From the NCBI GenBank assembly GCA_028534125.1, contig CM052816.1:2358001-2422000 (forward strand): a stretch of 64,000 nt of DNA, read 5' to 3'. Each line of letters opens with the position of its first letter. Position 1 is the first letter of the stretch. The DNA is from Lama glama (taxonomy: Eukaryota). The notes beneath the pieces are model-generated. The model ran no database searches. It saw only the letters and a list, made by a program, of their open reading frames with translations, and was not told the DNA's origin. Shown piece after piece: positions 33,610-34,499 of the stretch. A program made the position numbers and the translations under genes.

Positions 33610-33827
33610 GTAAGCCCCGGACCCTGCCCCGACGCCCCGTCCCGGGGCCCGCCTGCGTCCGTCTGCCCTCGGCACCCCCTGTGCTGGACCCGCCTGAGCA
33701 GCCCCGGTCTCCGTCCAGCTCGGCAGCTCTGCTCGGGCCCGGGACCTGCTCGAGAATCCTGTTTCCGCTCACTAATGCCATCGTTTCTCTTTTCTCCTCG
33801 CTCGTTCCCTGTGGTGGCCATGATCAG

Positions 33828-33895
33828 ACCAGTCTTTTGAGGACTCTAGCAAGCTCTCCAGTGCAGGGTCCCTCCCGGCCTGGCCTTCTCCTGAC
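33828..33895 (+). CDS. EBF1: Candidate alternative (cassette) penultimate EBF1 exon giving a different C-terminus
   Basis: Branch point CACTAAT 33770-33776, pyrimidine tract 33781-33810, first downstream AG at 33826-33827, donor GAC|GTAGGT. In phase with exon 15 it reads (D)[16 protein letters not shown]... Confidence 0.7.
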
Positions 33896-34499
33896 GTAGG
33901 TCACTCAGCCTTCCCTTCCTGCTGCCTGTGTCAGCGTGAACGTGTGTGGGGCTGGTAACGGGGAGGGGGTGAGATGGCCCGACCAGAGCCCTGAGGTTAC
34001 TGCAGCTCAGACCAAAGACCCAAGACTTCCTGCTGGGAACCAGAAACCCCGAAGTGCCACCAGAGGACTCTGGTTCATATTAAGAGTGTTTGATTTCATC
34101 CCCATCATGGAATAGGAAACTAACGGTCACCAAGAATTGAGGGGACCTTGCTATTCAAGGAGGAAAAAGAAAAACTCACCCTTTTAAGACGGGTCCATCT
34201 TCTGTGCTGGCCCTGTGTTGGGACGTTGACCTGTGTGGCCGCCTTCGTTCCCCGCAGTGGGACAGTGTGGGAGGCCCTCAGAGCCCCTGCTTTACAGATG
34301 AGAAAGGCAGAGGTTAGGGGCGTTGGGACATTGCTTGGCTTCCAACGTGGTGCGTGGCAGAGGCTGGCTTCAGACTCAGGCTCCAAATTCCATCTCGTCT
34401 TTCTCCCTCCAAGCACTTTATTAGTCAGAGGGGTAAACAGGATGCGCTCAGGACTCCTGAGGCAGCTGGTGGGGCAGACAGACCAGTAAAATCATCAGC

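Follow-up and report, generated by a model that had tools for sequence, protein, structure and literature searches.

A frameshifted ortholog of a conserved, annotated EBF1 alternative exon whose tail is shared with EBF4

The EBF1 locus and the splice signals after exon 15

The DNA analysed here, a 64-kb stretch that we call the window, contains on its plus strand the 3' portion of the mammalian gene EBF1, a regulator of B cells and neurons. tblastn placed six coding segments in order between 11400 and 40727, and the exons for the helix-loop-helix and the C-terminal region, again in order, identify the gene as EBF1. The 203 codons tested from exons 12-15 are identical to 22 of the 473 proteins compared; 21 of these are species-named laurasiatherian EBF1 or hypothetical proteins and one is without a name. 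Exon 15 (33415..33609, plus strand), delimited from the sequence and by tblastn with EBF1 proteins, has 94-100% identity to the best 120 of 1309 matches and ends in phase 1, with one base left over. The coding part of the last exon (40699..40730, plus strand) supplies the canonical 10-residue tail, with the stop ending at 40730; read in the shifted frame, the same exon gives four residues (40699-40710) followed by a stop ending at 40713.

Directly after exon 15, and in the matching phase, the plus strand carries a full set of splice signals. A 218-nt intron (33610..33827) opens with GT at 33610 and closes with AG at 33826-33827, and within it lie the branch-point consensus CACTAAT (33770..33776) and a polypyrimidine tract with pyrimidines at 27 of 30 positions (33781..33810); the sequence from the branch point to 33826-33827 is free of AG. 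The alternative exon (33828..33895) is 68 nt long in the window and is followed directly by the donor GAC/GTAGGT, whose GTAGGT occupies 33896..33901. A second GT, 4 nt downstream of the first donor (33900-33901, after 33899), would give a 72-nt, stop-free exon that keeps the frame. An earlier note on this DNA had listed these signals, from the phase-1 end of exon 15 to the first donor, together with a peptide, and our direct reading and our translation of the frame from 33827 agree with it throughout. We scanned the 64 kb for a strong branch heptamer combined with an AG-free run, at least 17 pyrimidines in 20 and a YAG, and recovered this site alone on the plus strand and none on the minus strand, with thresholds that were chosen with the site in view and that the window's other acceptors fail.

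Other features of the region were recorded as well. The last intron includes a gap of exactly 500 N (37497-37996) with A and T runs at its flanks and unseen content. Comparison of the whole window with itself yielded one 49-nt repeat pair only in 64 kb, and young interspersed repeats are scarce. The last-exon acceptor is preceded, 49 nt upstream, by a second one (40600-40649) made up of a long pyrimidine run and a CAG whose last base is 40649; reading from this second acceptor gives a frame that the tail of a fin-whale model (P0045) resembles.

Homology to annotated isoforms and to EBF4

The alternative exon is real and already known, since curated isoforms carry its tail. Human EBF1 isoform 9 (NP_001311038.1, curated RefSeq, to which P0024 is identical) ends in DQSFVDSSKFSSAGSLPGLAFS, and chicken EBF1 isoform 5 (NP_001384588.1, RefSeq; P0125) likewise carries the alternative-exon tail; in both, and in many RefSeq models with a 22-residue tail, the tail has the same position after exon 15 and the same phase as the window exon. 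Of 127,900 six-frame positions, 33827 gives the highest score (71) for residues 1-17 of the human tail, and the runner-up reaches 28; 15 of these 17 residues are identical in the window. In tblastn alignments the exon is identical to horseshoe-bat and grey-seal isoform tails at 14 of 17 residues. When the window exon frame (33827-33955) was searched against proteins, a weak test given the short query, five candidates came back, none at E<=10. We conclude that the window exon is very probably the ortholog of the conserved, annotated alternative exon in intron 15 of EBF1. Seeing no junction reads from the species would fit a chance match of splice signals in ordinary intron DNA, but the score gap of 71 to 28 and the orthologous annotated isoforms across jawed vertebrates refute that idea, to which we attach negligible probability.

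Position, phase and annotated isoform tails also bear out the earlier note in placing an alternative exon between exon 15 and the last exon. Its description of the exon as hidden does not hold in general, because the curated human and chicken RefSeq isoforms contain it. Among the best 120 of the 1309 matches to exon 15, 46 end in the alternative tail, 29 in the canonical tail and 45 in other ways, the last being mostly read-through. When the tail region itself was used as the query, which favours proteins that have the tail, 103 of 109 matches had a tail of exactly 22 residues, including gar, bowfin, teleosts and electric ray. Judged from proteins and read-through gene models, the EBF1 tail is present in electric ray, horn shark, gar, bowfin, teleosts, reptiles, birds and mammals. 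Its occurrence from rays and sharks through to mammals dates the exon at least to the common ancestor of jawed vertebrates, in agreement with the earlier note's view that it is ancient.

Variant C-termini appear in several other gene models. All ten members (10/10) of a baboon and macaque RefSeq cluster use an upstream acceptor and read across the exon in a different frame into the intron, producing a 100-residue read-through tail (window ~33650-33955). A further C-terminal variant, in which exon 14 is joined in frame to the last exon and exon 15 is skipped, is found in alligator, shark, ray and caecilian COE4 models (P0147, P0412, P0415, P0417, P0423 and P0424).

The EBF1 tail has a counterpart in EBF4. 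Six of seven members of a caecilian COE4 cluster and two bird COE4 proteins carry a homologous 23-residue tail at the same place, after an exon-15-like segment (caecilian XP_033809989.1 and XP_029450823.1; pigeon XP_021155890.1; crow XP_017592862.1). The caecilian EBF4 tail is identical to the turtle and to the human EBF1 tail at 15 of 22 residues each, and the pigeon EBF4 tail to the turtle EBF1 tail at 12 of 22; none of 5000 shuffles gave an EBF4-EBF1 identity as high, the EBF4 side of the comparison being caecilian and bird rather than mammalian. Homology to an EBF4-type tail at the same protein position is thus found for the intact EBF1 tail. For the window itself, the earlier note's proposal of an EBF4-like C-terminus stands in part: eight of the first nine residues match the caecilian EBF4 tail, but the first 17 residues alone are in frame, and the one-base shortfall described below shifts the frame after residue 17, so the window gives no full EBF4-like end. 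BLASTP produced no alignment between the window peptide and pigeon COE4.

EBF4 is a different paralog, and its tail is used differently. In a tree of 20 rows, from which the last 31 residues were left out, the COE4 rows stand apart from seven EBF1 rows with support of 100/99, and EBF2 groups with EBF3, also at 100/99; the tree is midpoint-rooted and has four long branches, and it places lamprey without resolution. Its COE4 group comprises five COE4-labelled rows and two bird rows labelled COE3 (P0186 and P0213), whose source labels may be wrong. The tail, 23 residues in EBF4 as against 22 in EBF1, is the usual ending in the COE4 models seen (6/7), whereas EBF1 models use both endings. The seventh caecilian COE4 protein has a tail of the last-exon type, so amphibian EBF4 appears to keep both endings too. 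The EBF4 tail is likely to come from an exon at the same place and phase, and in our judgement there is a strong probability that the exon predates the split between EBF1 and EBF4. The tail was absent from EBF2, EBF3 and lamprey in a thin sampling, in which 22 of the 146 representatives scanned had an exon-15-like segment and the tail-bearers among those 22 were one EBF1 and two COE4 proteins only.

The one-base shortfall and its predicted consequences

The window exon is an ortholog with a frameshift and not an intact copy: relative to intact orthologs it is one base short at 33878..33880 on the plus strand. A baboon read-through model, which reads across the branch point and aligns at 67% amino-acid identity over 33717-33878, follows one frame to 33878 and the next frame from 33881, with one residue spanning two bases, and human tail residues 19-22 match at 33880 in a different frame. 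The last four conserved codons and their TGA survive as an out-of-frame relic at 33880..33894 on the same strand. Residues 18-22, the conserved end of the tail, consequently fall out of frame together with the stop; the TGA at 33892-33894 lies in a frame other than that of the exon reading, and the frame remains open through the donor with no stop after residue 22. The earlier note had overlooked this lack of an in-exon stop, the displaced residues with their TGA, and the second GT. Substitutions relative to the commonest mammalian tail are V5E and F10L, at positions that are otherwise well kept, and T12S, which human shares; C occupies donor position -1. Together these features suggest an exon that is decaying in the window species after the loss of one base.

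In an intact gene, skipping the exon would join exon 15 to the last exon, and EBF1 would end in its usual 10 residues. Inclusion would add a 22-residue tail with a stop one base before the exon's donor and would turn the last exon into pure 3' UTR; with the stop inside the exon, inclusion would swap the 10-residue tail for the 22-residue tail. The 22-residue length and the layout of the window together point to this stop position and to an exon of 69 nt in intact orthologs. In the window species, where the exon is presumably also spliced, inclusion with the donor after 33895 is predicted to give a 27-residue tail, made up of 23 exon residues and four that the last exon encodes; if the weaker GT after 33899 were used instead, the 72-nt exon would run in frame into the canonical tail.

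Gene models support the view, already taken by the earlier note, that the exon is penultimate, a point on which intact proteins cannot show onward splicing. The tenrec protein XP_075398017.1 ends in the four residues encoded by 40699-40710 in the shifted frame, which implies use of the first donor, and three bamboo-shark models (P0383-P0385) have exon-derived residues followed by the canonical tail. Termination by nearby polyadenylation is disfavoured, as 33896-38396, a stretch that includes the 500-N gap, is without AATAAA or ATTAAA.

Stop codons less than 50-55 nt upstream of the last junction escape junction-dependent decay. The intact stop, 1 nt before the donor, is too near the junction for decay provided that no later intron follows, and a role as a poison exon is disfavoured by this position and by the window's stop in the last exon (ending at 40713), again assuming no further intron in the 3' UTR. 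A broader proposal is that the exon is chiefly regulatory, acting through mRNA decay, stability or translation rather than through a different protein tail. The stop inside the exon of intact orthologs would suit such a role, as would the way mammals seem to tolerate changes in the tail yet keep the splice signals. Against it, a stop one base from the donor should escape junction-dependent decay, and the peptide is identical in 25 of 27 birds and reptiles and at 15 of 22 residues in EBF4, a near-invariance that points to selection on protein; we consider a chiefly regulatory exon improbable.

An EBF1-PDGFRB fusion protein (P0118) joins right after exon 15 (33610-40698). A break in human EBF1 downstream of the stop-bearing exon would leave that exon in the fusion transcript, where its inclusion would stop translation before the kinase. 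Among the leading matches of one literature search, we found no publication on this fusion and the stop-bearing exon.

The missing base is probably real rather than an error of the assembly. The three best DNA runs contain 0.94-0.95 of the words sampled from 38000-43600. Counting all missing words in this neighbouring stretch as errors gives an upper bound of about 1.6 errors per kb and hence roughly a 10% chance of any error in 68 nt. The neighbouring exons are error-free, as judged by the 203 codons of exons 12-15 that are identical to 22 of 473 proteins, and V5E, F10L and the C at donor -1 fit decay. It is possible, though on balance unlikely, that the exon is intact in the species, that the missing base is an assembly error and that the ordinary 22-residue isoform is made: the full-length tail is found in 17 of 20 sampled mammals, the same DNA runs leave room for errors in the window, and the window's shifted tail occurs in no database protein. 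Runs recorded as RNA (X15-X20) contain 0.14-0.47 of the words of 38000-43600 and provided no evidence for the exon.

Similar frameshifts occur in tenrec, desman and bamboo-shark gene models. EBF1 isoform X1 of Tenrec ecaudatus (XP_075398017.1; P0129) enters the same new frame as the window and has the same 27-residue length; the two tails are identical at 16 of 23 residues and the frameshifts are a few bases apart. The tenrec shift begins two residues earlier and its host is afrotherian, which argues for an event, or an error, separate from that in the window. When the tenrec tail was used as a query, no annotated protein was found whose tail equals the shifted tail of the window.

The frameshift might also be real and the exon re-purposed, with the GT after 33899 creating a 72-nt cassette that inserts 24 residues ahead of the canonical tail. 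The cassette is stop-free and preserves the frame into the last exon, the three bamboo-shark models likewise show exon residues before the canonical tail, and tenrec, desman, shark and window all enter one alternative frame. A one-base loss can enter that frame only, however, so the shared frame is expected and is no sign of selection. The donor consensus has a purine at +3 and G at +5. The would-be donor TAG/GTCACT lacks both, whereas each of the window's four other donors examined has a purine at +5, and the tenrec model uses the first donor. We regard a re-purposed cassette as highly improbable and retain the reading of a decaying exon.

Constraint on the tail and its possible function

We compared tails using one tail-bearing protein per species from 20 mammals and from 27 birds and reptiles; fishes were excluded. 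Over tail residues 1-15, mammals differ at 11 of 300 positions, birds and reptiles at 2 of 405 (Fisher p 0.003); for exon 15, used as a control, the counts are 2 in 1280 and 2 in 1728, respectively. The species were hand-picked and are related, so these p-values overstate independence, and a single recurring T-to-S accounts for three of the 11 changes in mammals. Tails of altered length occur in three of the 20 mammals (tenrec, desman and beaver) and in none of the 27 birds and reptiles, a difference that is not significant (p 0.07); the models from tenrec, desman, beaver and shark are predictions on single assemblies, and errors could lie behind them. The mammalian frameshifts, together with tails more variable than those of birds and reptiles, suggest relaxed constraint on what may be a minor EBF1 isoform in mammals, and we treat this as a lead.

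The literature offers a partial context. The available part of PMC10903943 describes the EBF1 C-terminal domain as driving pioneer activity, and the disordered region and tyrosines mapped there (residues 420-520) lie upstream of the tail swap. EBF4 is presented in the accessible portion of PMC4312928 as the weakest transactivator of the family, with a poorly conserved C-terminal domain. Other EBF splice forms, and not the alternative-exon isoform, are discussed in the accessible portion of PMC2394523; two tail motifs had no match in six text supplements of that paper, a search that alignments supplied as pictures would escape, and the main text of PMC9388157, as far as it was available, makes no mention of isoforms. 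We considered whether an EBF2 'exon E16' with seven prolines, described in the available part of PMC13315918, represents the swapped tail. In EBF2 there are seven prolines in the exon-15-like segment and two in the final ten residues, so 'exon E16' most likely corresponds to exon 15 and is irrelevant here. A literature text search with three tail motifs gave no match, and no study of the alternative-tail isoform was found among the leading matches, subscription papers being mostly outside coverage.

One could imagine a switch as old as the jawed vertebrates that gives EBF1 the tail of EBF4 and tunes its activity or partners, held tightly in fishes, reptiles and birds and repeatedly lost or re-framed in mammals (tenrec, desman and the window species), here with the frame kept through the second GT; taken as a whole, we think this clearly unlikely. 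Our preferred guess is that the tail acts as a short motif tuning activation or stability, and that at least some mammals can do without it. The tail swap may affect transactivation.

The exon itself was known from curated annotation; to this we add a test of the homology to EBF4, the depth to which the tail is conserved, and a frameshift that may be specific to the lineage. Near-constancy from shark to bird, together with its presence in EBF4, suggests that the tail holds a short motif with a novel function, which would not much surprise a specialist. If its frameshift is real, a species such as this one would be a natural experiment revealing which part of the exon matters.
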